Below, piece after piece: positions 870 to 59,480 of a stretch of DNA of 64,000 nt. The translations under genes were made by a program, and so were the position numbers. The notes beneath the pieces are model-generated. The model made no database searches. It saw only the letters and a list, made by a program, of their open reading frames with translations, and was not told the DNA's origin. The first letter of the stretch is position 1, and each line of letters begins with the position of its first letter. The stretch is from Candidatus Moraniibacteriota bacterium (GTDB taxonomy: Bacteria > Patescibacteriota > Minisyncoccia > Moranbacterales > UBA2206): NCBI GenBank assembly GCA_026396175.1, contig JAPLXG010000008.1:659-64658 (forward strand), read 5' to 3'.

Positions 870-2228
870 ATGAGCGAAAGAATCGAAAATTTAATTGACG
901 ATGCGAAAGATGCAATCGCCGAATATGATCCTGGTGAATCAAAAATTGTCCTAGAAAAAATAAAGGGATCATCTTTTGGTTATTCCAATTTTCCTGCTGA
1001 CCTACTCATTCAGCTACAACTCATAGCTTTTCAAAACATAGCTGAAGATGAAGCAATCTCTATTTTAAAAAATAACTGCTTGGAATCATTCCGATATGAC
1101 ATTGATTTAAGAGGTGGCATAACCGCGAGATTGTTTATCGAGCCCTATACGGTTCGCGATGAGTTGCGTAAAAAACTCAAAAAAGCGCTGATAGAAAATC
1201 AGCAAAAAATAGGCACAATGACGATTGGCGAATGGATTTCTGATTTCGAAGCAATGTTTGATGTCAAAACTCGCGAATTAACTGCCTCGGCAGAATTTAT
1301 TTCCAAACACCCCAAGGCAGTTTTTCTCGCCCCAAGTGAAAAAATTAAACTAAAAGAACTGCTCTATACCTATGATTATTTATTGGTTTCCACATTACCA
1401 GCAACCGGACAATCTCTAGAAAATCTTCTAGCTTCAGCTTCCAGCGGAATAAATTCCCCCTCCAATCTTCATTCTAATATAGCGCAGAGGAATGAGACAG
1501 AAAGAATACAAGGAATGAGAACGGAAAGTCTCCCCATAAGCATTGCTATGGAAAAATATCCTGAACTCGGCGAACAACTAATCACCTCATCGCACATCAA
1601 ACTAAAAGTCTTTCCTGAGCCGGTGCGACCATCGATCAAAAATTGGCTTTCTGACTACACTTTCACGGTGGGTGTCAGTAATCATGATCCAATTGTGCGC
1701 GGAAACTATTTGTTCAAGAGCGAAAATGGTCGCCCGCTTTCCACTGCTGACCGCGACAAATTAACCGCGATTCTCAAATCTTTTGAAGAAAAAACTCCGC
1801 TCGCCGTGAACACGAGCACCAAGCAAGTTGTTTTCATCGCGCAAGAAAGAAAAGACCTTCCGCAAAGACCGGCGATGAATTCAGGCGTCGCGCGCAATAA
1901 TTTTGATCCGGCAGAAATCAGAAGGGGACAAGAAAACAATCGTGAGCCACAAAGAACTTCAGCGCCACAGCAAAGATTTCAAACCGATGAGGAAAGAATT
2001 GCTGCTTGGCGAAGAGATTTGCCGCAAAAAGAAACGCTGGAAAACGGAAACGCCGCCGGAAATATTCATTTCTCTTCACCCCAAACATTCTCCACCGAAA
2101 AACCGGCTGAAGTTTCTCGCCCAACTCAAAACAATTATTCGCCCCCGCAAATTGCCAAAATAAATTATTCCACACCCCCAAGACCTTTGCCAAGAAATGT
2201 GGTAGACTTGAGGGAGGAGGAGAGATAA
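870..2228 (+). CDS. hypothetical protein with P/Q/N/R-rich low-complexity C-terminus
   Basis: 452-aa ORF in a dense coding context. The C-terminal ~130 aa are proline-rich and look disordered. No catalytic motifs seen. Confidence 0.45.
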   Translation: MSERIENLIDDAKDAIAEYDPGESKIVLEKIKGSSFGYSNFPADLLIQLQLIAFQNIAEDEAISILKNNCLESFRYDIDLRGGITARLFIEPYTVRDELRKKLKKALIENQQKIGTMTIGEWISDFEAMFDVKTRELTASAEFISKHPKAVFLAPSEKIKLKELLYTYDYLLVSTLPATGQSLENLLASASSGINSPSNLHSNIAQRNETERIQGMRTESLPISIAMEKYPELGEQLITSSHIKLKVFPEPVRPSIKNWLSDYTFTVGVSNHDPIVRGNYLFKSENGRPLSTADRDKLTAILKSFEEKTPLAVNTSTKQVVFIAQERKDLPQRPAMNSGVARNNFDPAEIRRGQENNREPQRTSAPQQRFQTDEERIAAWRRDLPQKETLENGNAAGNIHFSSPQTFSTEKPAEVSRPTQNNYSPPQIAKINYSTPPRPLPRNVVDLREEER

Positions 2229-2282
2229 ATTTTCAATTTGAAATTAGAAATTTTAAATCAATATCAAATTCTAAATTAAGAA
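2229..2282. repeat. AT-rich 'aattttcaatttgaaatt' intergenic repeat block
   Basis: Built from (a)aatttgaaat/ttcaaattt units. The same family recurs at 2658-2729, 3938-4058, 5910-6056, 20058-20209, 42841-42934 and 43307-43384. Confidence 0.7.
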
Positions 2283-2657
2283 ATGATAAAAGATCCTGAA
2301 AAGTATGATTTGGAACCGAGAACCCTAAGGTTTAGTGGAGGGGTGCTTGTTTTCATTAAGAAATTAAGCAAAGACATCATAAACACTCCGCTGATGAGCC
2401 AGCTAGTTCGCTCTGCGACTAGCATAGGCGCAAACTACTGTGAAGCTAATGGAGCAAGCTCAAAAAAAGATTTTCACAATAAAATATACATTTGCAAAAA
2501 GGAGTGCAAAGAAACAAAATACTGGCTAGAGCTACTCGCACAAGCAAACCCGGAACACAAAGAAGAAGGTAGAAAGCTCTGGAAAGAGGCTCAAGAACTA
2601 ACCTTGATATTTTCAAAAATAGCCCTAACATTAGAAGAAGACAAAAAAACCAAATAA
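2283..2657 (+). CDS. four-helix-bundle protein (23S rRNA intervening-sequence protein family)
   Basis: 124 aa. The motif 'IGANYCEANGASSKKDFHNKIYICKKECKETKYWLEL' is typical of this family. It is ~70% identical to the paralog at 42935..43306. Both are flanked by AT-rich repeats. Confidence 0.6.
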   Translation: MIKDPEKYDLEPRTLRFSGGVLVFIKKLSKDIINTPLMSQLVRSATSIGANYCEANGASSKKDFHNKIYICKKECKETKYWLELLAQANPEHKEEGRKLWKEAQELTLIFSKIALTLEEDKKTK

Positions 2658-2729
2658 CCGCAATTTTATTTATTCAAAATTTAGAAATTATAATTTCATT
2701 TTAAATTTTAAATTGAAAATTTCAAATTA
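2658..2729. repeat. AT-rich 'aatttgaaat' repeat block, inverted relative to 2229-2282
   Basis: The reverse complement contains 'ttgaaattttcaatttaaaatttaaaatg', matching the block upstream of the same gene. The four-helix-bundle gene is therefore bracketed by inverted copies. Confidence 0.65.
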
Positions 2730-3137
2730 ATGATATTCAACGTCCCCCAATTTATTGATATCGAAGACAAGCTCGTTGGGCCGCTGACGGCCAAGCAACT
2801 GGGCTGGTTGGCTTTGGGCGCTGTTGTGCTTTTGATACTTTACGGCCTTTTGGATAAATCCGCTTTTCTGCTTTCTGCTATCATTGTCGCCACAATTTCC
2901 GGAGCATTTGCTTTCTATAAACCCTACAACCAACCCCTGATCAAATTCATCACCTCCTCAATTCTGTTTGTCACCCGTCCCAAGATGTATATCTGGCGCC
3001 GTGTGCCGGAAAAAATTCAAAAAGCCAGCGCCAAAAAAGATACTGACACCAAAAAAACGACCCGAAAAACATTTGATGCCCAAAAAATAGCAGATATTTC
3101 GCAATTATTAGACATGAGAAACAATCAGAACCACTGA
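2730..3137 (+). CDS. PrgI-like small membrane protein (VirB3-like T4SS component)
   Basis: 135 aa. The N-terminus 'MIFNVPQFIDIEDKLVGPLTAKQLGWLALGAVVLLILYGL' followed by a second TM segment is the usual topology of PrgI-family proteins. It sits immediately upstream of VirB4. Confidence 0.45.
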   Translation: MIFNVPQFIDIEDKLVGPLTAKQLGWLALGAVVLLILYGLLDKSAFLLSAIIVATISGAFAFYKPYNQPLIKFITSSILFVTRPKMYIWRRVPEKIQKASAKKDTDTKKTTRKTFDAQKIADISQLLDMRNNQNH

Positions 3138-3210
3138 TTATCACGTGATTACATGCGATTTCACTGAAATATCCTCCTCTTCCTCCGGGAGAGCCTGCCT
3201 GCCGGTAGGC

Positions 3211-3236
3211 AGGCTTCTCCCTAATGGAGAAGGGGA
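3211..3236 (+). promoter_or_regulatory. SD-sequestering hairpin (CTTCTCCCTAATGGAGAAGG) ending 15 nt before the ATG at 3251
   Basis: The palindrome TTCTCCC-taat-GGAGAAG contains the only purine-rich SD-like element (GGAGAAGGGG) ahead of the start. The same motif precedes the genes at 6873 and 12403. Confidence 0.4.
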
Positions 3237-3250
3237 TATAAATAAAATTT

Positions 3251-3937
3251 ATGGAAAAACTATATTCTCAAAAACTCGCCAAACAAGCTGCGGCGTCACC
3301 GACGCAACAATATTTGGATGTGGCGGAAGTCAAAGAAGATGTGATTGTGCTTAAAAACGGATCGATCCGCGCGGTTTTAGCTGTTTCAGCGATTAACTTT
3401 GAGCTGAAATCGACTGATGAGCAAGAAGCAATCATCAGCCAATACCAAAATTTCTTGAACTCGGTGGATTTTCCTTTGCAAGTGCTCATCAGTTCGCGAA
3501 AGCTAAACATCAACACCTATTTGGATTTTCTCACCACCAAAGAAAAGCAACAAAAAACCGAGTTGATGCGTTTGCAAATTTCCGAGTATAAAAATTTCAT
3601 CACGCAATTAGTTTCGATGTCGGATATTATGGATAAAACGTTTTACCTGATTGTGCCATTTTCGCCGATTGAAAATCAAGAGAAAAGTTTTTTCAGTAAT
3701 TTTTCCAATATGATTAACCCCCAAAAGGGTATTTTAGAAAAAAGAGAAGCCTTTGAAACCTACAAAAGCCAGCTCTACCAAAGAGTCGACCACCTCACCG
3801 CCGGACTTTCCGGCATCGGCGTGAAAATCATCCCCTTAAAAACCCAAGAATTGATTGAGCTCCTCTTTAATGCCTATAACCCGACCATTTATGATACGAA
3901 GGGCTATATTGATACGGAGAAGATGGAACTTAAATGA
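3251..3937 (+). CDS. VirB4/TrbE-family conjugal-transfer ATPase, N-terminal fragment of a split gene
   Basis: 228 aa. 'VIVLKNGSIRAVLAVSAINFELKSTDEQEAIISQYQNFLNSVDFPLQV' matches the conserved N-terminal region of Gram-positive-type VirB4 (Tn916 Orf16 / TcpF / PrgJ-like). The ORF ends where the VirB4 middle domain would start. Confidence 0.55.
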   Translation: MEKLYSQKLAKQAAASPTQQYLDVAEVKEDVIVLKNGSIRAVLAVSAINFELKSTDEQEAIISQYQNFLNSVDFPLQVLISSRKLNINTYLDFLTTKEKQQKTELMRLQISEYKNFITQLVSMSDIMDKTFYLIVPFSPIENQEKSFFSNFSNMINPQKGILEKREAFETYKSQLYQRVDHLTAGLSGIGVKIIPLKTQELIELLFNAYNPTIYDTKGYIDTEKMELK

Positions 3938-4058
3938 AAATTTTCAATTTGAAATTTAAAATTTGAAATGAATTTTAAATGCTCAAATTAAATAATTTTA
4001 AATTTAGTAATTCAGATTTCATTTCAAATTTCTAATTTCAAATTTCTAATTTAAGAAG
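3938..4058. repeat. AT-rich repeat block separating the two VirB4 ORFs
   Basis: Contains 'aattttcaatttgaaatttaaaatttgaaatgaattttaaatgct'. The same ~45 nt occur in direct orientation at 5917-5962, after the second VirB4 ORF. Confidence 0.7.
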
Positions 4059-5909
4059 ATGCTAAATCTATTCGCCAAAAAAGATCCCGCCGATGTTGCT
4101 TCGGCAAAAAAACCCGCTCCAACAAAGCCCCAGGATGAGGTTTTGGAGTCGGAAAAATATTATCAGGAAGGCCTCGCCAAGCTCAACGATATTATCGCGC
4201 CGGCGGCCATTCAGATTATGCCCAAATCGATCCGCATCGGAGAAACGATTGCGCAGACGATTTTTATCATTGCCTATCCGCGCTATCTGCACAGCAATTG
4301 GTTTTCGCCGATCATAAACATTGATATGCCGATCGACATTTCGATGTTTATCCATCCAGTGGATACCTATGACATCTTGAAAACCCTCAAAAAAAGTGCC
4401 ACGCAAGTGGAATCGCAAATTCAAATCGAACAAGAAAAAGGGCTCATCAGAAATCCCTCGCTGGAAACGGCTCAGCAAGATATTGATGAACTCAGAGATA
4501 AATTGCAACAAGGCACAGAAAAATTCTTCCGTTTCGCGCTCTACATCACAGCTTACGGCGACTCCGAACAATCCGTCACCAAAAGCATCAAAAGCATCGA
4601 AGCAATTTTGGAAGCGCAATTGGTCTATGTCAAACCGGCGGTTTTCAAATCTGAACAAGGCTTCAATTCATCACTACCGCTGGCCAATGATGAACTCGAC
4701 GTGGGAACCAATATGAACAGCTCGCCCCTTTCCACAACTTTTCCCTTTGTTTCTTCCACCCTTTCATCCAACACCGGCATTCTCTACGGCATTAATCGCC
4801 ACAACAACAGTCTGATTATTTTTGACCGCTTCCAGATGGAAAATGCCAATATGGTAGTTTTTGCCAAGTCCGGTGCCGGAAAAAGTTACACCGTCAAATT
4901 GGAAGTTTTGCGTTCAATGATGGTCGGCACTGATGTGATCATCATTGATCCGGAAAATGAATACCGCCATCTTTGCGATACCGTTGAAGGCACTTTCATC
5001 AAAATTTCACTTAATTCTACAAACCATCTCAACCCATTTGATTTGCCGCGCGTCGGAGAAGAAGATGATCCGGAAGATATTTTACGCAACAACATCGCCA
5101 ACCTTTTGGGACTTTTGCACATTATGCTCGGTTCCATCACACCAGAAGAAGATTCAGTTTTGGATCGCGCCATTCACGAAACCTATTCAATCAAAGACAT
5201 TACCGCTGAGGTGGATTTTAATTCGCTCGGCAAAGATTCTTTTCCGACAATGTCTGATCTCTACCAAGTTTTGCGCAGTTTGGACGGGGGAGAAGTGTTG
5301 GCCGTTCGCTTAGAAAAATATACGGAAGGAATTTTCGCCGGCTTTCTCAACCATTCCACTAACATTAAAGTTGATAACCAATTAGTTGTTTTCAATATTC
5401 GCGATATGGAAGAGGAATTGCGACCAGTGGCGATGTATATGATTCTGCAATTCATCTGGAACGAAATGCGCACTAATGTCAAAAAGCGCATCGTGCTCGT
5501 CGATGAAGCCTGGGTGATGATGAAATATGAAGACGCCGCTTCTTTCCTGTTTGGTGTCGCCAAACGTTGCCGCAAATACTTCACCGGCCTCACCACCATC
5601 ACGCAAGATGTCAATGACTTTCTTTCTTCCCGCTATGGCAAAGCGATTGTCACAAATTCTTCTTTGCAACTACTCTTAAAACAATCTCCTGCCGGCATTG
5701 ATGTCATTTCCGACACATTCTATCTCACTGATCAAGAAAAATTCTTACTCCTCGAAAGCAACGTCGGCGAAGGCATTTTCTTTGCCGGCACCAATCATGT
5801 CGCCATCAAGGTGGTCGCGTCCTATTCTGAAGACCAAATCATCACCACCGATCCGTCGCAACTGCTAGACATTGAAAGGGCGAAGAAAGAATTTGCCGAG
5901 GAAGAATAA
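4059..5909 (+). CDS. virB4: VirB4/TrbE-family T4SS ATPase (middle + ATPase domains)
   Basis: 616 aa. Walker A 'SGAGKSYTVK' and Walker B 'IVLVDEAWVMM' are present. The N-terminal portion 'IAPAAIQIMPKSIRIGETIAQTIFIIAYPRYL' continues the VirB4 architecture begun in 3251..3937. Confidence 0.8.
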   Translation: MLNLFAKKDPADVASAKKPAPTKPQDEVLESEKYYQEGLAKLNDIIAPAAIQIMPKSIRIGETIAQTIFIIAYPRYLHSNWFSPIINIDMPIDISMFIHPVDTYDILKTLKKSATQVESQIQIEQEKGLIRNPSLETAQQDIDELRDKLQQGTEKFFRFALYITAYGDSEQSVTKSIKSIEAILEAQLVYVKPAVFKSEQGFNSSLPLANDELDVGTNMNSSPLSTTFPFVSSTLSSNTGILYGINRHNNSLIIFDRFQMENANMVVFAKSGAGKSYTVKLEVLRSMMVGTDVIIIDPENEYRHLCDTVEGTFIKISLNSTNHLNPFDLPRVGEEDDPEDILRNNIANLLGLLHIMLGSITPEEDSVLDRAIHETYSIKDITAEVDFNSLGKDSFPTMSDLYQVLRSLDGGEVLAVRLEKYTEGIFAGFLNHSTNIKVDNQLVVFNIRDMEEELRPVAMYMILQFIWNEMRTNVKKRIVLVDEAWVMMKYEDAASFLFGVAKRCRKYFTGLTTITQDVNDFLSSRYGKAIVTNSSLQLLLKQSPAGIDVISDTFYLTDQEKFLLLESNVGEGIFFAGTNHVAIKVVASYSEDQIITTDPSQLLDIERAKKEFAEEE

Positions 5910-6056
5910 GTGACATAATTTTCAATTTAAAATTTGAAATTTAAAATGAATTTTAAATGCTATAATTTTTAAAATTTAAATTTTTCTAGTTTGGATTTGA
6001 ATTAAAATTTTTTGCTTCAAGCTTATCCTTTGAGGGCAAATTTAAAATTAAGAGTT
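5910..6056. repeat. AT-rich repeat block plus the conserved 'ttgcttcaagcttatcctttgagggcaaattta' motif
   Basis: Direct copy of the 3941-3985 repeat. The 3' motif recurs at 43338-43375 (ttgctccaatcttatcctttgaggacaaattta). Confidence 0.65.
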
Positions 6057-6623
6057 ATGTCTCAAGAAGAAGAAAATCAAAAACGCTTAGAAGCGCAGAG
6101 AGAGGCTGATGAGGAAAACAACAGGGCACGAGAAACAAGTCAGCAAAAAAAGAGTCTGCGAAAATTAGCCAGCGAAATCGCTAGAGAAGCGGGAGTGACG
6201 GATACCGAGCATCTCCGGAAGTTTATCAGGCTCATAGATATTTTTTTTGCTGTTGCTATAATGACTTCTTTGCTGAAGGACATCTTTGATTTTCTCGGCA
6301 ATGCCATTCCCTATCTATACCTCATCTGTGTCGTTTTTGCTTTTATGGCGTCAATTGTCACCTGGGCAGCTATGCTTATTTGCGGAGCTGGCCTGCGTCA
6401 GCACAAAAGAAGATCGCTGATGAAAAGCATTTTTACCCGCAATAAATTAGCCATTCTATTCGCTGGTACTATTCTTGAAATACTCCCTATCCTAAATTTT
6501 TTTCCCATAGAAACAGTTACCACATTCGCTATTTTCATTTTAATTTTGAAAGAAAGAAGAGAAAGCGCCGCGGAAGAGGAAAGAGAAACTGCTCAACTGG
6601 CTAATGTTTATGCGCAAATTTAA
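6057..6623 (+). CDS. hypothetical membrane protein with charged N-terminus and 3-4 TM helices
   Basis: The start was moved to the internal ATG at 6057 (MSQEEENQ...), directly after the repeat motif; the upstream part of the track ORF lies inside the repeat. Hydrophobic segments FFAVAIMTSLL, YLYLICVVFAFMASIVTWAAMLIC and LAILFAGTILEILPI. Confidence 0.45.
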   Translation: MSQEEENQKRLEAQREADEENNRARETSQQKKSLRKLASEIAREAGVTDTEHLRKFIRLIDIFFAVAIMTSLLKDIFDFLGNAIPYLYLICVVFAFMASIVTWAAMLICGAGLRQHKRRSLMKSIFTRNKLAILFAGTILEILPILNFFPIETVTTFAIFILILKERRESAAEEERETAQLANVYAQI

Positions 6624-6625
6624 TT

Positions 6626-6866
6626 CCTCCTCGCCCTTAGGGAGAGCCCGCCTGCCGGTAGGCAGGGATGTCCGGAGGACAGGTGAGGCTACGGAATAGT
6701 TTTTTCAATACCTCTTCTCCCTTAGGGAGAGGATGTCCGTAGGACAGGTGAGGGAAGGGGCGTAGAAAAAAAGAAAACAATATTTAAATAGTGCCGGTTG
6801 ATTATTGAAAGGCTCTTCCCTCATCCGCCCTCCGGGCACCTTCTCCCTAAGGGAGAAGGGGATATA
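6626..6866. repeat. composite GC-rich hairpin element, copy a
   Basis: Contains the CCTGCCGGTAGGCAGG palindrome, two 'CTCTTCTCCCttaGGGAGAGGATGTC(N)GACAGGTGAGG' units and the 'ccctcatccgccctccgggcaccttctccctaagggagaagggga' module. Homologous copies lie at 12228-12402 and 59086-59312. Confidence 0.7.
6841..6866 (+). promoter_or_regulatory. SD-sequestering hairpin (TTCTCCCTAAGGGAGAAGG) 11 nt upstream of the ATG at 6873
   Basis: Same palindrome as at 3211 and 12367. GGAGAAGGGG lies in the 3' arm of the stem. Confidence 0.4.
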
Positions 6867-6872
6867 AACAAA

Positions 6873-7544
6873 ATGTACCCGAAATTAACCCCAAAAAATA
6901 AACAAACCTTTTTCAAGACCAATCAGGAGTTGCTGGTCGGTTTTGGCGTCGCGCTTGTTTGCCTTTTTTCCAGCTTTATTTTCCCCGCGCAAAATACCGC
7001 GCAAATTATCACGAGAAATTTATTTTTTCTCGTTCTTCTTCCGGCGGCATACATAAAAATAATCCTCGGAAAAGACCTGGCTGATTTTGGTTGGAATTTG
7101 GAAAATAAAAAAGTGGCTTTGCCTTGGAGTATCGGCACGACACTTTTTACCCTACTCATTTTCTATTTGATGTTAAATTATACCGGACTCAAAACCGGCT
7201 ATGTTTTGGCGAGTTACCTGAAAAATAGCTTTTGGCTATTCCTTGCCTATGAACTGCTTGCAATCAATTTTGTCGTTTTTGTTTTCAGTTATTTTTTTCA
7301 AGGCTTCATTCTTTCCCTTTTTCAAAAGGAGTTTAGCCACTTCGCCATTGCCCTCCAAACCGTGCTATTTGTCCTGGCCATTTTTCTCGCCAAAGCACTC
7401 GCCTGGCAAACCGCGCCTTTCATTTTGCTTTCCGTCACAGCCGGCTTTCTCGCCTGGAAAACCAGATCATTTTTTTATTCGTATTTTATGAGTATTTTTG
7501 CTATAATAATTTTGGACGCTTATATTATTTATCTTACTAAATGA
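6873..7544 (+). CDS. polytopic membrane protein (possible T4SS channel component), function unknown
   Basis: The start was set at 6873 (MYPKLTPKNK) after the hairpin; the track ORF start at 6798 reads through the repeat. About 6-7 hydrophobic helices. No CPBP or other catalytic motifs recognised. Confidence 0.45.
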   Translation: MYPKLTPKNKQTFFKTNQELLVGFGVALVCLFSSFIFPAQNTAQIITRNLFFLVLLPAAYIKIILGKDLADFGWNLENKKVALPWSIGTTLFTLLIFYLMLNYTGLKTGYVLASYLKNSFWLFLAYELLAINFVVFVFSYFFQGFILSLFQKEFSHFAIALQTVLFVLAIFLAKALAWQTAPFILLSVTAGFLAWKTRSFFYSYFMSIFAIIILDAYIIYLTK

Positions 7545-10465: not shown

Positions 10466-10556
10466 GTTATTCGAGACATTAGGGTGCTTATTCGTAAATT
10501 AGAGTCGCTTTATTACGGCGACACTAATACTCGAATTTACACGCTAATGACCCAAA
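10466..10556. repeat. ~80-nt palindromic intergenic element, copy 1
   Basis: 'cattagggtgcttattcgtaaattagagtcgctttattacggcgacactaatactcgaatttacacgctaatgaccc'. The reverse complement occurs at 25322-25396. Confidence 0.65.
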
Positions 10557-10593
10557 TATGATTGAACCGTGTAAGTCCTGAGAATAAAAAAAT

Positions 10594-11679
10594 TTGATGA
10601 ATTTAAAACTAAAACAAAAAATTGTCCTAGCAATCCTTGCTTTTTTGCTGGTTTTTATTCCTTCGGTATCAAAAGCAACTAGCTGTAGTTGTGCCAATGG
10701 TAGCGTAGTTTATTATACTGGTGTAGGTGAGGCCGCTGATGTGTCCACTAGCGCAGACTGCGACCAGACCTGTGCCAACCGCGGTGCAAATCTTTATTTT
10801 TACAATGCGAGCACATTTCCTTCTAGCGTTACAAAAACACCAACCACCCCACCAGCAAACCCCACTGGCACATCTTCTCCGCAAACACCGGTAGCCTCAA
10901 ACGTCAAATATCCCTACACCCCCATGGAAGCAATTCCCGGGTTTCCCAAAACCGGATCGATGATAGACTACGTTTTGCAAATTTATCAATTTGGCCTCTG
11001 GACAATCGGAATCGCCGCCGTGTTTATGATTTCCATCGGCGCCTTTATGTATATCACCAGCGCCGGAAACACCAGCCAAATGGGCAAAGCCAAGGAGGTT
11101 ATTTTCGACGCCATTATCGGCGTCATCCTCGCCCTCACGTCCTATGTGCTGCTCAACACCATCAACCCCGCGCTTGTTCAGATTGGTGGTGGGGATTATA
11201 GTACCACTGGCGGAGGTGGAACTGGTGGCGGAGGTGGATCGGGTGGTGGAGGTGGAGGAGGTGGTAGCTGCACACCAGTAACCAGTGGCCCATGTTCAGT
11301 TGATCAATTAACTGGAAGTTGTTTTGACGGAATAGCCGATCTTTCAAAAATTTCATCTCTCTGTAATGCAGAAAGTGGCGGTGTTAATATTCCCAGTACT
11401 GTAGATATATGCACCGACAGAACAACCTACTTTTCATGCGGAGCGTTGCAAGTCAACCTAACCTGTGCATGCAAAGGAACGAATGCGTTCACTGGGGCAG
11501 AGCCGTCCACTGGTTGCGCAAATTCTAACTGCACAGGACCAGGAATAAATTATACGTCATGCACCAGTCAAACCTGCAGTGGCAGTGGAAACATAACGGC
11601 GGCCTGTAAGGCATACAAAGAACATTCGGGAAATAAATATGATACGTGGACAAAGAATAGCACCTGTGGTTTCTCATAA
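10594..11679 (+). CDS. VirB2/TrbC-like pilin with poly-Gly linker and Cys-rich C-terminal domain
   Basis: 361 aa. Signal peptide, then the two-helix pilin core 'AIPGFPKTGSMIDYVLQIYQFGLWTIGIAAVFMISIGAFMYITSAGNTSQMGKAKEVIFDAIIGVILALTSYVLLNTINPALV', then 'GGGGTGGGGGSGGGGGGGG', then ~150 aa containing about 16 Cys. Confidence 0.55.
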   Translation: MMNLKLKQKIVLAILAFLLVFIPSVSKATSCSCANGSVVYYTGVGEAADVSTSADCDQTCANRGANLYFYNASTFPSSVTKTPTTPPANPTGTSSPQTPVASNVKYPYTPMEAIPGFPKTGSMIDYVLQIYQFGLWTIGIAAVFMISIGAFMYITSAGNTSQMGKAKEVIFDAIIGVILALTSYVLLNTINPALVQIGGGDYSTTGGGGTGGGGGSGGGGGGGGSCTPVTSGPCSVDQLTGSCFDGIADLSKISSLCNAESGGVNIPSTVDICTDRTTYFSCGALQVNLTCACKGTNAFTGAEPSTGCANSNCTGPGINYTSCTSQTCSGSGNITAACKAYKEHSGNKYDTWTKNSTCGFS

Positions 11680-12219: not shown

Positions 12220-12227
12220 CTAACCCG

Positions 12228-12402
12228 CATCTTCTCCCCCTCGGGAGAGGATGTCACGAGCACGTGACAGGTGAGGGCAAGGGCTATATTACTTGGGGAA
12301 CGCGTTATTATAGAGAGCCAATAAAATTTTTCAAAAGCCCTTTCCCTCATCCGCCCTCCGGGCACCTTCTCCCTAATGGAGAAGGGGATTCAAATTAAAC
12401 CT
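12228..12402. repeat. composite GC-rich hairpin element, copy b
   Basis: 'cttctccccctcgggagaggatgtcacgagcacgtgacaggtgaggg ... ccctcatccgccctccgggcaccttctccctaatggagaagggga'. Homologous to 6626-6866 and 59086-59312. Confidence 0.7.
12367..12392 (+). promoter_or_regulatory. SD-sequestering hairpin (CTTCTCCCTAATGGAGAAGG) upstream of the ATG at 12403
   Basis: Third occurrence of the same palindrome placed directly 5' of a start codon. Confidence 0.4.
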
Positions 12403-13320
12403 ATGCAAAAAACTCTAAAAAAAATAAATTTAAACAAAGCTGCTATTTTTTCTTTTTTTGTCTTTCTTTTTCTCTTTACTTTCAATAAAGCCAACGCCGC
12501 CGGTCTCGTTCCTTGCGGGCTGGGTGCCAGTGATCCCTGCACGCTTTGCCATTTTATCGTGGGAATTAAGGGTCTGATTGATTGGGGAATGAGCATCATC
12601 ATTGCCGTTTCCATCGCGGGAATTTCTATCGCCGGCGTACTCTATGTCCTTTCCTCTGGCAGTTCTACGCTCACCACCCAAGCCAAGGGCTTCATTACAA
12701 GCGTAGTAATCGGCTTTTCGCTCTTTCTTGGGGCATGGCTCATCATCAACACTACATTTTATTTACTTTCCGCCAAAAAAGACGATACCAGCGGCACCTA
12801 TAATCTTGGCCTCACAAGCAAAAGCTGGAATTCTTTTTCTTGCTCAACTACTAGCTCTACAATGGGAGTTTTACCTCCCACCACTGACGCAACCATAGCT
12901 GATTATAATTGCGACAAGCTCACCTTTCAAACATCTGCTGTAAAAAACCAATGCAATGATGCTTCTTCCGCTCTGCAAACAATGATTGTATGCATGAGAA
13001 ACAAGCTCGGCACCAAGATGACCATCAATTCCATTTCTGATAATAACGGGGGCGGCACCAAATGCTATCAAACTTATCCCAAGGGGCCGCAATGCGTCAA
13101 TGATGCGGACACTAACTGTTGCCACCATGCCGTAAGCTCATGTCATTACGGAGGGGTAAATGTAGGAAATTCCGAGGCAGTTGATATTTCCACTACCACA
13201 GGGCTAACTGTTGATAACATAATTACCGCCGCTAACGCATGCAACGCTGGATATACTAAAGATGAATCTGTCAACTATAATCACGTACACGTCAGTACCA
13301 CTAATTGTAGAAAAGATTAG
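12403..13320 (+). CDS. second VirB2/TrbC-like pilin with Cys-rich C-terminal domain
   Basis: The start was set at 12403 (MQKTLKK) after the hairpin. Signal peptide, then the pilin core 'GIKGLIDWGMSIIIAVSIAGISIAGVLYVLSSGSSTLTTQAKGFITSVVIGFSLFLGAWLIINTTFYLL', then a C-terminal region with about 13 Cys. Confidence 0.5.
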   Translation: MQKTLKKINLNKAAIFSFFVFLFLFTFNKANAAGLVPCGLGASDPCTLCHFIVGIKGLIDWGMSIIIAVSIAGISIAGVLYVLSSGSSTLTTQAKGFITSVVIGFSLFLGAWLIINTTFYLLSAKKDDTSGTYNLGLTSKSWNSFSCSTTSSTMGVLPPTTDATIADYNCDKLTFQTSAVKNQCNDASSALQTMIVCMRNKLGTKMTINSISDNNGGGTKCYQTYPKGPQCVNDADTNCCHHAVSSCHYGGVNVGNSEAVDISTTTGLTVDNIITAANACNAGYTKDESVNYNHVHVSTTNCRKD

Positions 13321-25295: not shown

Positions 25296-25321
25296 AATTA
25301 TAACCTATACTTCTTAAACCA

Positions 25322-25396
25322 CATTAGGGTCATTAGAGTGTAAATTTGAGTATTAGTGTCGCTATAAGGGCTCAATATGCGACTCTAATTTACGAA
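25322..25396. repeat. ~80-nt palindromic intergenic element, copy 2 (inverted relative to 10466-10556)
   Basis: 'gggtcattagagtgtaaatttgagtattagtgtcgc' is the reverse complement of 10519-10554. It is followed by the CCTGCCTGCCGGTAGGCAGG palindrome at 25397-25416. Confidence 0.65.
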
Positions 25397-35644: not shown

Positions 35645-35813
35645 GTCATCCTGAGCGTATCCACCATCTGCCAGTGACAGATGTGGACGGAGTCGAAGGA
35701 TCTGCGTTCTATTTTTGGGAGCTTTTTATGATTAAGTAAAGCTTTGGGTTGTGGCAAGTAGATCCTTCGACTACGTCCGAGTACGGACTTCGCTCAGGAT
35801 GACATGATTTTTA
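35645..35813. repeat. MITE-like inverted-repeat element, copy 1
   Basis: Termini 'gtcatcctgagcg...gagtcgaaggatctgc' and 'gatccttcgactacgtccg...cgctcaggatgac' form ~35-bp imperfect inverted repeats around a ~90-bp core. Related copies at 40870-41008 and 55127-55290. Confidence 0.7.
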
Positions 35814-40869: not shown

Positions 40870-41008
40870 GTCATCCTGAGCGGAGTCCTGTACTCAGGAC
40901 GCAGTCGAAGGATCTGCTAACCGTAATCCAAAGCTTTCTGTTTAATAGTTGAGCTTACGATAATGGAAAACAGATCCTTCGACTTCGCTCCGCTTCGCTC
41001 AGGATGAC
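40870..41008. repeat. MITE-like inverted-repeat element, copy 2
   Basis: 'gtcatcctgagcggagtcctgtactcaggacgcagtcgaaggatctgc ... cagatccttcgacttcgctccgcttcgctcaggatgac'. Confidence 0.7.
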
Positions 41009-42061: not shown

Positions 42062-42262
42062 AATAACCAAGAAACTATTAACAAGATACAAGAAACAAGT
42101 GACAAGATGTGGGACAAGAAACAAGATGCAAGAAACAAAAACCAAACAAAATTCAAATTACAAATATCAAAATTCAAACTTTTGGATTATTTGAGATTTG
42201 TAGCCTTGGGTTTTGGAATTTGTTTGTATCTTGTTCCTTGTTTCTTGTAACTTGGTTGAATT
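42062..42262. repeat. iteron-like cluster of ACAAGAAACAAG / CAAGATACAA repeats in both orientations
   Basis: At least 4 direct copies of caagaaaca(ag) at 42068-42140 and inverted copies at 42228-42258. The 18-mer 'caagatacaagaaacaag' is identical to a stretch inside fpg (54815-54850, minus strand). Confidence 0.55.
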
Positions 42263-42816: not shown

Positions 42817-42840
42817 ATTGTCTGAACCGCTCTCAAGTAA

Positions 42841-42934
42841 GGCTAAAGTCTAAATTTGAAATTTGAAATGAATCCTAAATGACTAAATTTTAATTTATCA
42901 TTTTTGAATTTAGCCTTGGTTTAAAATTTTAAAT
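42841..42934. repeat. AT-rich 'aaatttgaaatttgaaatgaatcctaaatg' repeat block
   Basis: Same family as 3941-3985 and 5917-5962. Flanks the second four-helix-bundle gene. Confidence 0.65.
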
Positions 42935-43306
42935 TTAGTCTTTAGACTTTTTCTCAAGCGTTAATATTATTTTTGAGAAAATCATAGTTAGCTCTTGGGC
43001 TTCTTTCCACAGAACTCTACACTGATCTGCATGCTCTTCATTCGCCCTGGCGATAATTTCTAGCCAATATTTAGTTTCTTTGCACTCCTTTTTGCAGATA
43101 TAAATTTTATTCTTAAAATCTTTTCTGGAGCTTGCGCCATTAGCTTCGCAGTAATTTGCACCTACACTTGTTGAAGATCGGACCAGTTGGTTTATTAGAG
43201 GAGAGTTTATCGCATCTCTTTTTAGTTTTTTCAAAAATGAAATAACATCACCACTAAATTTTATAGTCCTTGGTTCAAGGTTATAGTTTTCAGATTTTTT
43301 TGTCAT
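42935..43306 (-). CDS. four-helix-bundle protein (23S rRNA intervening-sequence protein family), paralog of 2283..2657
   Basis: 123 aa. 'IGANYCEANGASSRKDFKNKIYICKKECKETKYWLEI'. Confidence 0.6.
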   Translation of the reverse strand: MTKKSENYNLEPRTIKFSGDVISFLKKLKRDAINSPLINQLVRSSTSVGANYCEANGASSRKDFKNKIYICKKECKETKYWLEIIARANEEHADQCRVLWKEAQELTMIFSKIILTLEKKSKD

Positions 43307-43384
43307 TTTTAAATTTAGAAATTGATTTTAAATTTTTTGCTCCAATCTTATCCTTTGAGGACAAATTTAGCCTTTAGACTTTTT
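43307..43384. repeat. AT-rich repeat block plus the 'ttgctccaatcttatcctttgaggacaaattta' motif
   Basis: The motif is shared with 6010-6050. 'gaaattgattttaaatttt' is shared with 20176-20196. Confidence 0.65.
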
Positions 43385-46300
43385 CTATATCTCTGTCACC
43401 CTCTCCACCTCTTCCAAAGTCGTCTCGCCCTCCAAAACCTTCAAAATCCCATCCTGCGCCATCGTGATCATGCCTTCATCCATGGCTTTTTGGTTTAGTT
43501 CTGATGTGACGGCATTGTGCATTACCGCTTCTTGGATTTCGCGGGAGAATAAAAAGATTTCACTAATTGTGGTGCGGCCTTTGTAGCCGAGGTGGTTACA
43601 CTTATCACAGCCGTTTGGTTTGTAAATTCCAGCTATTTTTGGAATTTCAACTTGCGCTTTTGGACTAATCGTTTTCAAAACTTTTTCCATTTTTTGTTTT
43701 TCTTCCGCTGTTGGTGCGATTTTTGTTTTGCATTCGCAAAGTGTGCGGACCAAGCGTTGGGCGATAAAGGCGTTCACTCCGGAAACGATGTCTTCCGGTT
43801 TGACGCCCATATTAAGCATTCTGGCGACTGCGCCGGAGGCGTTGTTGGTGTGAAGTGTCGAGAGTACTAAATGCCCGGTGAGCGCGGCTTGGACGGCAAT
43901 CTGGGCGGTTTCATTGTCGCGAATTTCACCGATCATCATAATGTCCGGGTTTTGACGGAGCAGTGCGCGCAGAGCTGTGGAAAAGGTATAGCCGTCTTTT
44001 TCACTGACCGGAGTTTGGAGGATGCCTTCCATCTGATATTCAATTGGATCTTCGACTGTGATGATTTTGATTTCCGGATTTTTAATGAGGTTTAAAATGG
44101 CATAGAGCGTGGTCGTTTTTCCACTGCCGGTGGGGCCGGTGTTGAGAACTACACCATTAGGTTTAGAAATTTCATGTTTAATCTTTTCCAAGTTTTGTTT
44201 TCTGATTCCTAGTTTATCCAAATTGAGTTCCACGGAGGATTTGCTGAGGAGCCGCATCACGACCGTTTCACCAAAACCACCAAGAATAATGGAAACGCGG
44301 ATGTCGACTGATTTTTCTTTCAGTTCAGTCAGTTCGTCATCAAAAGTGATACTGAAACGACTATCAATCACGCCTTGGCGCGCTTCAGTTTTCACGCCAC
44401 TGAGCATTTTAACTTGTCCGAGGAAGGTGGTATATTCCGTAAGGGGAAGAGAAGCAATTGTTTGCAAAATTCCATCAATGCGGAAACGGATTTTGACGCT
44501 TTCTTTTTCCGGTTCGATATGAATATCGCCCACTCCCAGAATTTGCGCGGCGGAAAAAATAATCTTGATGGCATCGGTAATTTTTGTTCCGGCGAGGAGC
44601 GTTTGCATTTTAGCAAAATCGTTTACGTTGTCTAATGTTTTATCATAAAATTCTTTCTTGATTGGTAATGTGCTGCCAAGAGTTTGCGCCATCAATTTTT
44701 CATAGATACCTTCCAAAAATTCTCCTTGTCCGGTCACTTTTTTCACTTCGTCAATGGACGTGACGCCGGAAACGGCTTTCAAGATTCCATCTTGAAGCAT
44801 TGTCACCATACCTTCTTCCAAAACGGCCATCGTGATTTCTGTTTCGCCAGCCAAATCAAGAATCATTTTTTCTGTTTCCGGGCTGATAGTGAGCACTTCA
44901 AAAATTCCCATCCGGCCCTTGTAGCCGGTATTGCCGCATTTTAGGCAACCTTTGGGACGATAGAGCTTGTTAATATTTTTGGGAATTTCCACTTTGGCAC
45001 GCGGGGAAATGATGGAAAGAATTTTTTTGATTGATTCAACCGTTTCTCTGGCTGGCACATATTCTTCTTTGCAATCACAAAGTTTGCGCACCAAGCGTTG
45101 TCCAATAATCGCGTTTACTGCCGGAGCGATGAAGGATGGTTTTACGCCCATTTCAATTAGACGCGGGATGGAAGCAATGGCGCTATTGGTGTGGAAAGTG
45201 GAAAGCACAAGGTGCCCCGTGAGAGCGGAATTGACAGCGATATCAGCTGTTTCATCATCACGAATTTCACCGACCAAAATGATATCTGGGTCTTGACGGA
45301 CAATGGCACGCAGTCCAGTGGCAAAAGTATATCCGCGGGCTTTTTCAATTTGCGTTTGTGAGACGCCCTTCAGCTGATATTCAATCGGATCTTCAATAGT
45401 AATGATTTTTTTGTCGGGGGTGTTTAGTTTGCTGATGATGGCATAGAGCGTGGTGGTTTTTCCACTGCCAGTTGGGCCGGTGGTGAGAATCATACCATTG
45501 GGCGCTTCAATCTGTTTTTGCACGATTTCATAGGCGAGTCCTTGCAGACCTAATTCTTCAATATTGACATTGATTGAATCGGGATCAAGAAGACGCATCA
45601 CGATTGATTCGCCGTAGTTGCCCGGAATGGAAGAGGCGCGAATGGCAATTTTTTTATTGGCCAGACTAATGTCAAAGGTGCCATCTTGTGCCATATCAGC
45701 CAGATTGAGTTTCATTCCCGACATCATTTTGATTCTGGTGGCGATTCTTTTGTGGATATTCAAGGGAAAAAAAGCTACGTCTTGCAAAACGCCATCAATG
45801 CGGTAACGCAAGCGAAAATCTTTTTCTTGCGGTTCAATGTGCACGTCCGATGCGCCGAGAGTATAGGCCCCAGCCATAATCGTGTTCATCACATCAGTGA
45901 TTGGCATCTCCTTGATTCTTTCTTTGAGCTCAAGTAAATTTTTAAGTGCTGCTTCGAAATCGGTGAGCTCTTTATCGCCAATGGTCAAATTCAGTTGATC
46001 AAGAATTTCCGTGAAAACAATTTTTTTGTATTTTTCCAAAACCCGCTCGAAATTATATTTGGAGATGATAAACATTTTTATTTTCAAACCTGTCTTCTCG
46101 GAAAAACTTTGAAGAAATTCTTTCACGCCTTCCTGCAGGGGATTGGTGGCAACAATTGTAGCCAATTTGGACTTTTTTTGGATAACAGCCACGCTAAATT
46201 TTCGGGCGTCACTTTCGTCGATCAGTTTCAAGCTATCAATTGAAACGGGTACAATGTTGGTGTCGATATAGGGCAGTTCTAATTTCGCCGCCAGCTGGGC

Positions 46301-46405
46301 AGTTTCCTCTTCTTCTGATTGCTGTTGCAGTTTGGAAACTAATTTACTGGAGATTTCCTCTTTTTCTTTTTCCGTCCCGGCAGTTTTTTTTGTGACTTGA
46401 ATCAT
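43385..46405 (-). CDS. tandem-duplicated GspE/PilB-type secretion ATPase (two complete T2SS-E units in one 1006-aa polypeptide)
   Basis: Two Walker A boxes 'GPTGSGKTTTLYA' (about residues 300 and 760). Each is followed by Asp/His boxes and a tetra-Cys zinc motif (CDCKEEY...GCLKCGNTGYKGR and CECKTKI...GCDKCNHLGYKGR). Each unit is preceded by a GspE-N-like domain. Confidence 0.8.
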   Translation of the reverse strand: MIQVTKKTAGTEKEKEEISSKLVSKLQQQSEEEETAQLAAKLELPYIDTNIVPVSIDSLKLIDESDARKFSVAVIQKKSKLATIVATNPLQEGVKEFLQSFSEKTGLKIKMFIISKYNFERVLEKYKKIVFTEILDQLNLTIGDKELTDFEAALKNLLELKERIKEMPITDVMNTIMAGAYTLGASDVHIEPQEKDFRLRYRIDGVLQDVAFFPLNIHKRIATRIKMMSGMKLNLADMAQDGTFDISLANKKIAIRASSIPGNYGESIVMRLLDPDSINVNIEELGLQGLAYEIVQKQIEAPNGMILTTGPTGSGKTTTLYAIISKLNTPDKKIITIEDPIEYQLKGVSQTQIEKARGYTFATGLRAIVRQDPDIILVGEIRDDETADIAVNSALTGHLVLSTFHTNSAIASIPRLIEMGVKPSFIAPAVNAIIGQRLVRKLCDCKEEYVPARETVESIKKILSIISPRAKVEIPKNINKLYRPKGCLKCGNTGYKGRMGIFEVLTISPETEKMILDLAGETEITMAVLEEGMVTMLQDGILKAVSGVTSIDEVKKVTGQGEFLEGIYEKLMAQTLGSTLPIKKEFYDKTLDNVNDFAKMQTLLAGTKITDAIKIIFSAAQILGVGDIHIEPEKESVKIRFRIDGILQTIASLPLTEYTTFLGQVKMLSGVKTEARQGVIDSRFSITFDDELTELKEKSVDIRVSIILGGFGETVVMRLLSKSSVELNLDKLGIRKQNLEKIKHEISKPNGVVLNTGPTGSGKTTTLYAILNLIKNPEIKIITVEDPIEYQMEGILQTPVSEKDGYTFSTALRALLRQNPDIMMIGEIRDNETAQIAVQAALTGHLVLSTLHTNNASGAVARMLNMGVKPEDIVSGVNAFIAQRLVRTLCECKTKIAPTAEEKQKMEKVLKTISPKAQVEIPKIAGIYKPNGCDKCNHLGYKGRTTISEIFLFSREIQEAVMHNAVTSELNQKAMDEGMITMAQDGILKVLEGETTLEEVERVTEI

Positions 46406-54221: not shown

Positions 54222-55097
54222 TTATTTCTGACACTTGGCGCAAAAGAACACACTTCTTTGCGCCATTTTTTTGCGCAAAATTTTTCCGCCACATTTTTCT
54301 GGACACGGCAATTTATCTCGACGATAAACTTTTAGGACTTCTTGAAAATGTCCCGGCGCGCCGGAAGAGTCGCGATAATCACTGTCTGATGTTCCACGCA
54401 TTTCGATGGCGAGCTTCAAGATTTTTTTGGTCGCAAGAAAAATCTTTTTGCGTTCATCCTTTTTGAGACTTTCATTTTTGCGTTCCGGCAAAACGCCGGC
54501 GGCAAAAAGAATCTCACTGCGATAGATGTTGCCAATGCCGGAAATTATGCTTTGATCGAGTAGAAAAATACCGATGAGCATTTTTGGCTTTGCATCTAGC
54601 AGTTCATTGAATTTAGCGAGTGTGAATTTCTCACTCATTGCATCAATCCCAATCTTTTTTTCTGCCAAATATTTTTCAATTTCTTTCGTTTCCAAAAGCC
54701 GCATCGTAGCAAACTTTCGCAAATCAGAAAATTCCAGAGTTTTGTTTTTATCTAAATACCAGATGTGATGAATATATTGATTAACTTTGTCGTCGAAATA
54801 ATTTGTATTTCCCTTCGTTTGTTTCTTGCTTCTTGTTTCTTGTATCTTGATGAGAAGGTGTCCCGTCATCCGCAAATGAATACGCAGCGATTTTCCATCA
54901 GAAAGATTGAGAAAAATATTTTTCCCCACCCGCTGGGCCAAAAGTATTTTTTTATTTTTCATTTCACGTTGAAATTTCAAAAGCGTTGCGCCTTTAATGG
55001 CCGAAGGAAAATCGGACCAAAACTTTGTGATAGTCAGGCCTTTGATTTTTTTATTAAAGTCAGAAACAATCGTTTCGACTTCTGGTAGTTCGGGCAT
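54222..55097 (-). CDS. mutM: formamidopyrimidine-DNA glycosylase (Fpg/MutM) with an in-frame insertion
   Basis: 291 aa. 'MPELPEVETIV' catalytic N-terminus, H2TH, C-terminal zinc finger 'CPEKCGGKILRKKMAQRSVFFCAKCQ'. The segment 'KIQETRSKKQTKGNTNYFDD' (54800-54860) is longer than in typical Fpg and carries the caagatacaagaaacaag iteron sequence. Confidence 0.8.
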   Translation of the reverse strand: MPELPEVETIVSDFNKKIKGLTITKFWSDFPSAIKGATLLKFQREMKNKKILLAQRVGKNIFLNLSDGKSLRIHLRMTGHLLIKIQETRSKKQTKGNTNYFDDKVNQYIHHIWYLDKNKTLEFSDLRKFATMRLLETKEIEKYLAEKKIGIDAMSEKFTLAKFNELLDAKPKMLIGIFLLDQSIISGIGNIYRSEILFAAGVLPERKNESLKKDERKKIFLATKKILKLAIEMRGTSDSDYRDSSGAPGHFQEVLKVYRRDKLPCPEKCGGKILRKKMAQRSVFFCAKCQK

Positions 55098-59073: not shown

Positions 59074-59085
59074 AAAATTAGATTT

Positions 59086-59312: not shown

Positions 59313-59480
59313 GCTAGGACATTCGTATATTCGTACAAATTCGTAATTCGTAGAGATCTACACAAAATGTCCACCATCGATTTCTGTCAATCTCAAACTG
59401 ACCAAATTCCAAAAATCCCTTATCCTAGCTTAATTATACATCAGTTTAAAACTTATGTCAATATTGTCGCAAGATTACTG

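Follow-up and report, generated by a model that had tools for sequence, protein, structure and literature searches.

A TrsD-like gene and a VirB4 ATPase gene separated by an AT-rich palindromic spacer in a Candidatus Moranbacteria genome

The window (the whole stretch of DNA that was analysed, 64,000 nucleotides) belongs to a Candidatus Moranbacteria genome that was assembled from a metagenome. Two consecutive open reading frames, here called ORF1 and ORF2, were studied together with the genes and intergenic elements around them. The features of the locus are given in order of position.

2226..2729, + strand: IVS-type cassette; inverted AT-rich arms of period 7 flank a four-helix-bundle (23S_rRNA_IVP) gene at 2283-2657
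2730..3137, + strand: PrgI/TrsC-like (VirB3-like) small membrane protein, 135 aa (Pfam PrgI, PF12666, E 1.3e-9)
3138..3250, + strand: intergenic region directly upstream of ORF1, containing a nested hairpin repeat that is rich in G+C
3251..3937, + strand: ORF1, 228 aa, TrsD-like protein that stands alone and corresponds to the first part of the N-terminal domain of VirB4 (assigned by NCBIfam and fold)
3938..4058, + strand: spacer, an AT-rich imperfect palindrome with arms at 3938-3992 and 3998-4052
4059..5909, + strand: ORF2, VirB4 ATPase without the first ~225 residues of full-length VirB4, 616 aa (assigned by profiles)
5910..6057, + strand: second AT-rich repeat copy plus a small hairpin; 5915-5983 is direct relative to 3938-4005 (families D1, D2, D10)

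ORF1 extends from an ATG to a TGA and lies in a different reading frame from ORF2; the next gene after ORF2 has its ATG at 6058. The initial annotation had described the two ORFs as the N-terminal part of VirB4 followed by its continuation, with a 121-nt AT-rich spacer between them. The former was confirmed by profiles and by an alignment to PrgJ, and the latter by a G+C content of 14%. The PrgI/TrsC-like gene is syntenic in all related loci, and its position and length are those of trsC of the plasmid pSK41. Neither a relaxase nor VirD4 was found by profile scan among the ten ORFs between 870 and 12219, and an Rfam scan of the whole window gave zero family matches.

ORF2 was assigned to the VirB4 CD1110 family (NF045971) by its score (377.2 bits at positions 181-734, above the curated cut-off of 325) and its Walker motifs. 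Walker A (AKSGAGKS) and Walker B (IVLVDE) are both present, as had been reported for the second ORF. Further matches were obtained to the Pfam families P-loop_TraG, AAA_10 and DUF87 and to PDB entry 4ag5 (E 3e-51). The polypeptide contains the remainder of the VirB4 N-terminal domain and the Walker A/B ATPase domain; its N-terminal domain is incomplete, and positions 2-119 of the 752 positions of NF045971 sit in ORF1. ORF2 was aligned with residues 228-772 of the fused 796-aa PrgJ of pCF10. Because the alignment pairs PrgJ residue 228 with ORF2 residue 46 (IAPAAIQ...), the missing VirB4 N-terminus is supplied by ORF1; the first ~45 residues of ORF2 are an extra leader. Comparison of the combined products with full-length VirB4 showed that they jointly span one VirB4, with no residues lost or duplicated at the junction. 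The break is placed inside the N-terminal domain, and not at its border with the ATPase domain, because positions 21-173 of Pfam TraC_F_IV were found in ORF1 and positions 276-374 of 375 in ORF2.

Apart from its N-terminal match to the CD1110 family, ORF1 matched the Mbov_0397 VirB4 profile (positions 99-253 of 894) and TIGR00929 (positions 14-151 of 792). The TrsD/TraD family NF041427 was matched with E 1.2e-6 and 28.5 bits. Since this score is far below the curated cut-off of 200, ORF1 appears from its sequence to be a distant TrsD relative and not a member at NCBI's threshold. Precomputed PF26593 (TraC-like) matches exist for the identical protein P0001 and for all 120 listed homologues; the local Pfam search with ORF1 gave no PF26593 match and no significant family, only TraC_F_IV at E 0.04. 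Searches of the PDB with ORF1, by sequence and by profile, returned nothing meaningful. The AlphaFold model (pLDDT 87.6) was matched to TrwK/VirB4 by all of its top 14 PDB fold matches, among them the VirB4 protein TrwK of R388, so that VirB4 was seen for ORF1 in the PDB through the fold search and not through sequence or profile searches. No significant match to the PrgJ N-terminus was obtained with ORF1 by BLASTP; the link between ORF1 and PrgJ rests on profiles and fold. Homologues of ORF1 formed 2212 clusters, of which the best 150 were all 132-443 aa long. The dN/dS of ORF1 (0.02-0.05) shows strong purifying selection, and ORF1 is a real, functional part of VirB4. With 228 aa, homology to the VirB4 N-terminus and a place between a PrgI/TrsC-like gene and the gene of an N-terminally short VirB4-like ATPase, it corresponds to the stand-alone TrsD type (~200-230 aa).

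The arms of the spacer consist of AAATTTG-type period-7 repeats (inverted repeat I10; direct families D1-D3); because AAATTT is self-complementary, it is difficult in this family to tell direct from inverted similarity. Period 7 was detected by TRF at 3938-3969 and 4021-4052, and the arms are 76% complementary. The RNA hairpin was calculated at -29.1 kcal/mol (z -4.0; z -6.3 in a second calculation). Its stem is A/U-rich and is followed by AAGAAGAUG, which is not the structure of an intrinsic terminator.

Across the window, the motif AAATTTSAAATTT had 17 matches against 2.1 expected, 15 of the 17 being in five intergenic sites. The recurrence of the repeat in direct orientation after ORF2, which the initial annotation had pointed out, was reproduced (5916-5958 is 91% identical to 3938-3980; over 67 nt the match is 85%). 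The small hairpin in this gap is also present at 43305-43381; relatives have only 26-39 nt after ORF2. A four-helix-bundle gene is enclosed at two of the five repeat sites (2226-2729 and 42838-43384). The first of these cassettes sits between a 452-aa gene and the PrgI-like gene; its arms (2226-2282 and 2658-2729) have period 7 by TRF, its gene matches Pfam PF05635 (E 9e-18) and TIGR02436 (E 8e-23), and the flank duplex energy is -30.7 kcal/mol versus -19.9 kcal/mol for shuffles. The related loci L065, L066 and L067 lack the cassette at this junction, where they have 64, 6 and 8 nt, and L004 has the arms only (77 nt). The ORF1/ORF2 junction of other genomes holds unrelated palindromes or a four-helix-bundle cassette; L043 carries such a cassette and L044 the same cassette with an internal deletion. 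The flanks of 71 metagenomic cassettes were complementary (median z -3.45), and period 7 was found in 112 of 148 cassette arms versus 1 of 148 control segments. The repeat at 3138..3250 belongs to a different family from the AT-rich spacer, with D7, D9 and D14 copies near 6625-6885, 12366-12411 and 59286. It folds with -48.4 kcal/mol (z -5.3); relatives have -2 to 11 nt or other palindromes at the junction between the PrgI-like gene and ORF1. Hairpin inserts between genes are a feature of the present genome and some relatives.

The repeat elements resemble the 23S rRNA IVS with S23p ORF of Coxiella and Leptospira in their long-stem terminal inverted repeats, their heptameric repeats of variable number and the protein family encoded in the loop. 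The IVS in the 23S rRNA of Coxiella has the same parts, including heptameric repeats, and is cut by RNase III; ORF-less versions exist (PMC4990558). The elements described here, in contrast, are found between protein-coding genes and are in neither helix 25 nor helix 45 of rRNA. The spacer itself has the terminal inverted repeats with a long stem and the tandem heptameric arm repeats, but no S23p/four-helix-bundle ORF in its loop and no location in 23S rRNA; it is probably an ORF-less IVS-type element. Some properties of MITEs were also found, namely multiple copies, terminal inverted repeats and presence or absence among relatives, but neither a target-site duplication, on comparison of the empty site in L066 with the filled site, nor a transposase-encoding parent; no transposase was seen in association with the AT-rich repeat family. 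Nothing relevant on palindromic repeats or MITEs of candidate-phyla-radiation (CPR) genomes came from a literature search. Elements built like rRNA IVS were observed to occupy the intergenic gaps of the operon, where they are better conserved than synonymous sites.

This conservation could mean that the spacer has a host function and is not a passive insert. A possibility considered in place of a selfish or decaying IVS-type insert was that selection maintains the spacer for host regulation; it might act as an attenuator or internal promoter, or as a hairpin for mRNA stabilisation or processing that sets the TrsD:VirB4 ratio. The spacer is 90% identical to the copy in L068, versus 53% at 4-fold sites of ORF1, and 80% identical to the copies in L002 and L004, versus 31% at 4-fold sites of the adjacent gene; such identity could instead have arisen because the family's many copies were homogenised. 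Among 22 long spacers that other genomes have at this junction, 13 fold with z <= -3, and the stem of the present one ends 6 nt before the ORF2 ATG, just upstream of AAGAAG. Against a regulatory role, the presence and length of the spacer vary among relatives: close ones do without it (their genes overlap or are 8, 18 or 25 nt apart), and different genomes have unrelated sequences at the same site. Nor is an internal promoter or terminator supported, because promoter-like and terminator-like matches showed no excess over shuffle expectation; there was no terminator-like site on the + strand of 3938-4058. A regulatory element kept by selection is on these grounds rather unlikely.

The IVS-type reading can be extended. 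It is proposed tentatively, and with less than even confidence, that the spacer belongs to an undescribed IVS-type population in CPR, made up of inverted period-7 hairpins with or without the S23p gene, which would be located between the protein-coding genes of essential operons instead of in rRNA and would combine fast turnover between strains with conservation far above neutral sites.

The boundary between ORF1 and ORF2 was compared among related loci. In every one of the 57 loci that contain both genes, these are separate ORFs divided at the same point (57/57), over a range of ORF1 identity from 91% down to 40%. Gap lengths of -29 to +492 nt were seen, and the relative frame of the two ORFs differs between loci. 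In L009 and L010 the genes overlap (TAATG), and in L066, among the closest relatives, they are 8 nt apart. An apparent second virB4 split in L068 turned out to be a scaffold gap (a run of N) and not biology. A triplet of the trsC-trsD-trsE type is also found in Pontibacillus, Brevibacillus, Bacillus thuringiensis and Clostridium plasmids. Since relatives whose genes overlap or lie 8-25 nt apart have the split without the repeat, the split, as judged from these sequences, predates the repeat. The spacer did not cause the split and is a later occupant of the intergenic gap.

Among the closest known systems, TrsD plus TrsE of Staphylococcus pSK41/pGO1 (MPF-FATA T4SS, pGO1 subclass) matches the locus in gene order and sizes. 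In pSK41, trsC encodes 135 aa, trsD 227 aa and trsE 672 aa, and TrsE is a VirB4-like ATPase without N-terminus. ORF1 was aligned end to end with pSK41 TrsD (residues 24-221 versus 40-222, 22% identity), and ORF2 with TrsE from residue 9 onwards (9-617, 26% identity). In pSK41, however, trsD and trsE are 14 nt apart with no repeat, and the plasmid is conjugative and has a relaxase, whereas the present locus is a chromosomal Patescibacteria system. ORF1 plus ORF2 are also colinear with a single fused protein such as PrgJ of pCF10 or TrwK of R388 (823 aa): ORF2 residues 125-563 align with TrwK residues 291-735, and the fold of ORF1 matches TrwK. They differ from PrgJ and TrwK in being two polypeptides, with the break inside the N-terminal domain.

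According to the consulted part of a 2025 survey (Quinonero-Coronel et al. 2025; PMC12102498), the T4SS of Patescibacteria usually lacks a relaxase and, like the present locus, is chromosomal, has a TrsD homologue adjoining virB4 and a PrgI/VirB3 homologue upstream, with VirB6/TrbL-like and pilin-like genes nearby. TrsD is described there as the most abundant T4SS component in Patescibacteria (2,272 homologues, mostly adjoining virB4), as remotely homologous to the VirB4 N-terminus, and as essential in Southlakia epibionticum. Intergenic repeats are absent from the consulted part of this account, and the present locus differs in having them. From this survey of Patescibacteria TrsD it follows that the split was already known: the two-gene VirB4 has been described and is found throughout ultra-small bacteria and on some Gram-positive plasmids. 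A literature search for TrsD, TrsE and VirB4 jointly returned nothing relevant.

The split is thus almost certainly ancestral, representing the known TrsD plus VirB4 arrangement. Very probably the locus is the standard two-gene VirB4 of Patescibacteria and pGO1-pSK41-type monoderm T4SS, with a later, variable spacer that is not its cause. A naturally split gene had been offered initially as the second option, and it is this option that the orthologous loci and the consulted part of the survey (PMC12102498) support. The first option, insertion of a repeat element into an intact virB4 that left a pseudogene or a newly made two-piece gene, is highly improbable and was refuted by the orthologous two-gene loci, the outcome that the initial annotation had named as speaking against it. 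The repeat does sit exactly between the halves and recurs just after ORF2, and the description of virB4 as split by a spacer was correct as to the position of the spacer but not as to cause. The same boundary is present with or without the spacer in the 57 loci and in Bacillota plasmids, ORF1 has the low dN/dS values given above, ORF2 has its own start and leader, and no VirB4 residues were lost or duplicated. The single ORF hidden by a sequencing or assembly error (stop or frameshift), or by programmed read-through or frameshifting, is more improbable still: the ORF1 stop is a TGA, a codon that is read as glycine in some candidate phyla, and contigs of close relatives break at the AT-rich repeats, but the 121 nt contain 3-6 stops per frame, an in-frame TAA follows the TGA, relatives use TAA or TAG instead, the frame relation differs among loci, independent assemblies agree, and a sequencing artefact is excluded by the stops, by conservation in these assemblies and by the dN/dS values of ORF1.

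In the arrangement preferred here, TrsD plus VirB4, both products would be made from one operon and would assemble non-covalently into a VirB4-like unit. The VirB4 N-terminal domain of R388 docks on VirB3 at the membrane, and the TrsD-like ORF1 product would supply this VirB3-docking part. The spacer would be transcribed as a long A/U hairpin with inverted 7-nt repeat arrays as arms, of a multi-copy family whose fuller members have an S23p gene in the loop. By analogy with rRNA IVS, such a hairpin would be a likely RNase III substrate or mRNA-structure element, and may uncouple the co-expression of the two genes without abolishing it. Actual processing of the spacer RNA by RNase III, considered on the same analogy, is a speculative proposal.

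For annotation, the locus should be treated as TrsD-like plus VirB4 and not as a virB4 pseudogene. Pipelines that flag a short VirB4 as broken would misjudge a secretion system on which epibiotic bacteria appear to depend. The split inside the N-terminal domain provides a natural way to dissect the part of VirB4 that docks to VirB3. The existence of an undescribed IVS-type population would imply either a means of mobility that is not yet known or a functional role, for example in directing RNase III to process polycistronic mRNA, or in providing binding sites for the four-helix-bundle protein, which is pentameric. If confirmed, intergenic IVS-like elements would mean that IVS occupy more kinds of sites than those known so far, and would offer a starting point for studying the role of the S23p protein family, which has long been unknown.

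The virB4 region of the window contains the following features:

2226-2729, cassette, four-helix-bundle gene between period-7 arms
2730-3137, forward strand, PrgI/TrsC-like gene
3251-3937, forward strand, ORF1, TrsD-like protein gene (228 aa, stop codon TGA)
3938-4058, spacer, AT-rich (121 nt, 14% G+C), an imperfect palindrome with arms at 3938-3992 and 3998-4052 (76% complementary)
4059-5909, forward strand, ORF2, VirB4 ATPase gene (616 aa)
5916-5958, direct repeat copy 3' of ORF2 (91% identity to 3938-3980; 85% across 67 nt)

The two ORFs, the spacer and the repeat copy after ORF2 were found as described in the initial annotation. ORF1 and ORF2 differ in reading frame and the spacer contains three to six stop codons in every frame, so that the ORFs cannot be joined by a single-base error or by read-through; a sequencing or assembly artefact was rejected.

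ORF2 matched the CD1110-type VirB4 profile with 377 bits (curated threshold, 325), covering only model positions 181-734 of 752. A P-loop domain was detected in ORF2 by profile search, and the product was similar to the solved VirB4 ATPase domain 4ag5 (E 3e-51). ORF1 was matched by three VirB4 profiles, each at N-terminal positions, and by the named TrsD/TraD family, whose members are stand-alone proteins. ORF1 was modelled with AlphaFold (input of 100 homologues; mean pLDDT 87.6), and the model was compared with the PDB using Foldseek. The top 14 matches, with E-values between 2.5e-4 and 2.6e-3, were all TrwK/VirB4 chains of the R388 machine; the first match beyond these had an E-value of 0.17. 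In the alignment with the fused PrgJ of pCF10 (796 aa), PrgJ residue 228 pairs with ORF2 residue 46; the 228-aa ORF1 therefore supplies the missing N-terminus. A leader of approximately 45 residues, ahead of the PrgJ alignment, is ORF2's own. Since the Pfam TraC/VirB4 N-terminal domain model is shared out between ORF1 (positions 21-173, weak match) and ORF2 (positions 276-374), the break lies inside the N-terminal domain and not at the border of the ATPase domain. Among 1.84 billion cluster representatives, 2212 ORF1-related clusters were detected, the best 150 of which were 132-443 aa long and included no protein of VirB4 length.

Relatives were scanned using one genome per species, resulting in 60 loci with an ORF1 relative. 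Wherever an ORF2 relative was also present (57 loci), the two were separate ORFs with the same boundary (57/57), from an ORF1 identity of 91% down to 40% and across Moranbacteria, other Parcubacteria, Ryanbacteria and Niyogibacteria. These loci have gaps of between -29 and +492 nt separating ORF1 and ORF2, with a variable frame relation. The ORF1 stop and ORF2 start codons overlap in L009 and L010 (L numbers denote related loci in other genomes), the gap is 18 nt in L003 and 25 nt in L005, and it is only 8 nt in L066, which is among the closest relatives found (ORF1 amino acid identity, 96%). The PrgI/TrsC-like gene, ORF1 and ORF2 are syntenic, with stop and start codons overlapping or almost touching in many genomes, and both VirB4 halves are conserved. 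An apparent second virB4 split in L068 was a run of N (scaffold gap).

A pseudogene was rejected because ORF1 is under strong purifying selection (dN/dS 0.02-0.05). Insertion of the repeat into virB4 was likewise discarded, as all 57 loci share the boundary and relatives have overlapping genes or gaps of 8-25 nt; the repeat is not the cause of the split. The naturally split gene, the other possibility raised in the initial annotation, is supported by the uniformly two-gene orthologous loci and by the published record. Quinonero-Coronel et al. 2025 (PMC12102498) describe TrsD as the commonest type IV secretion component in Patescibacteria (2,272 homologues, 1,664 adjoining virB4) and as a remote homologue of the VirB4 N-terminal part and, by citation, call it essential in Southlakia epibionticum. 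As TrsD beside virB4 is thus already reported, the locus is a known, stable two-gene VirB4. The order recurs on plasmid pSK41, on which trsC (135 aa), trsD (227 aa) and trsE (672 aa) correspond to the window genes in both order and size; TrsD aligns end to end with ORF1, and the alignment of TrsE with ORF2 begins at TrsE residue 9. PrgI, an ORF1-like gene and a short VirB4 also follow one another on plasmids of Pontibacillus, Brevibacillus, Bacillus thuringiensis and Clostridium beijerinckii.

In the R388 structures, VirB4 is found together with VirB3 in the inner-membrane complex. By analogy, TrsD would contribute the VirB3-proximal portion of the N-terminal domain and would be held to the ATPase subunit non-covalently. 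A VirB2-like pilin, of the kind reported near virB4 in Patescibacteria, may be encoded by ORF 10594-11679, which matches the T4SS pilin family PF18895 weakly, below threshold (E 8.5e-4), and contains at 11208-11264 a tandem repeat rich in glycine (TGGCGGAGGTGGAACGGG x 2.7).

The spacer folds into a single long A/U hairpin (-29.1 kcal/mol; z-score -4.0 with dinucleotide and -6.3 with mononucleotide shuffles), and both arms are built of 7-nt AAATTTG-type units. The repeat family occupies five intergenic sites within the window, which hold 15 of the 17 occurrences of its motif (2.1 expected). The two spacer halves are 73-74% identical to the corresponding arms of the cassette 2226-2729, left to left and right to right. 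Neither promoter-like nor terminator-like signals exceeded chance at the spacer, a scan of the whole window gave no match to Rfam families, and neither a target-site duplication nor a transposase was detected for the spacer element.

In nucleotide alignments the spacer, where present, is conserved much above neutral sites: identity is 90% to the L068 copy (928-1049) and 80% to the L002/L004 copies (6688-6795), against 53% and 31% at fourfold-degenerate sites of ORF1 in the same comparisons. The element is absent from L066, a closer relative than these three. Three processes could each account for the high identity: selective constraint on the hairpin, homogenisation of copies within the family, or lateral spread of the element.

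Inserts at orthologous junctions show rapid turnover among the relatives compared. Upstream of PrgI, the four-helix-bundle gene with arms is present in the window and L001, arms without the gene (77 nt) in L004, 41 nt in L006, another period-7 palindrome with CATGCAG units in L002, L003 and L009, and 6-27 nt in L005, L007, L008, L010, L066 and L067. At the TrsD-VirB4 junction, the AT-rich element of the window recurs in L068, L002 and L004. This position is taken by an AAAATCA-type palindrome in L069, a G+C-containing palindrome of 202 nt in L067, TACGAAA-type palindromes in L008, L011 and L012, a complete four-helix-bundle cassette in L043, and the same cassette minus 244 nt internally in L044. 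Long spacers at this junction had a fold with z <= -3 in 13 of 22 cases. Contigs of the closest relatives end at this junction or shortly beyond it, 109 nt (L065) and 36 nt (L066) past ORF1, probably because these repeats make assemblies break.

Other repeats were also recorded. The members of a second family, of G+C-rich nested hairpins (CTTCTCCCTAATGGAGAAGGGGA..., GCCTGCCTGCCGGTAGGCAGGC), lie at 3138-3250, 6625-6900, 12226-12411 and 59082-59331, directly 5' of several start codons (fold z -5.3 for 3140-3255); the PrgI-TrsD junction of relatives holds 0-11 nt or a different palindrome. A third palindrome family (42068-42254 and 54814-54849) has period-7 arms of CAAGAAA units opposite TTTCTTG-like units. 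Inverted repeats with GTCGAAGGATCT occur at 35688-35778 and 40897-40987, and the L066 gap between PrgI and TrsD (4772-4929) is filled by a palindrome of similar kind; ATTCCCGC...GCGGGAAT-type palindromes were found in L067, L002 and L022. A dispersed 54-nt inverted pair (10513-10566 and 25314-25367) is 85% complementary, its members being 14.7 kb apart. The 1006-aa ORF 43385-46405 (reverse strand) contains an internal duplication of approximately 320 nt (43838-44161 and 45179-45502; 73-76% identity, spacing 1341 nt).

Genes for four-helix-bundle (23S rRNA intervening sequence, IVS) proteins were found in hairpin loops at 2226-2729 and 42838-43384 and in loci L072-L151. Repeats of 7 nt, arrayed in inverted orientation, make up the hairpin arms. 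This architecture is general: in 71 metagenomic relatives of the four-helix-bundle gene the flanks are complementary (median duplex energy -31.5 versus -19.1 kcal/mol in shuffles; median z -3.45, 82% under -2), and the best repeat period is 7 in 112/148 arms but in 1/148 control segments. These cassettes look like rRNA-type intervening sequences between protein-coding genes. The 23S rRNA IVS of Coxiella, which is excised by RNase III, has the same parts, namely terminal inverted repeats, variable-number tandem heptameric repeats and an S23p ORF (PMC4990558). By this likeness, the spacer is read as an ORF-less IVS-type hairpin that settled between two genes already separate, and RNase III may process it. 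As judged from a limited literature check, the IVS-like hairpins in the intergenic gaps of the operon may be the sole part that is new.
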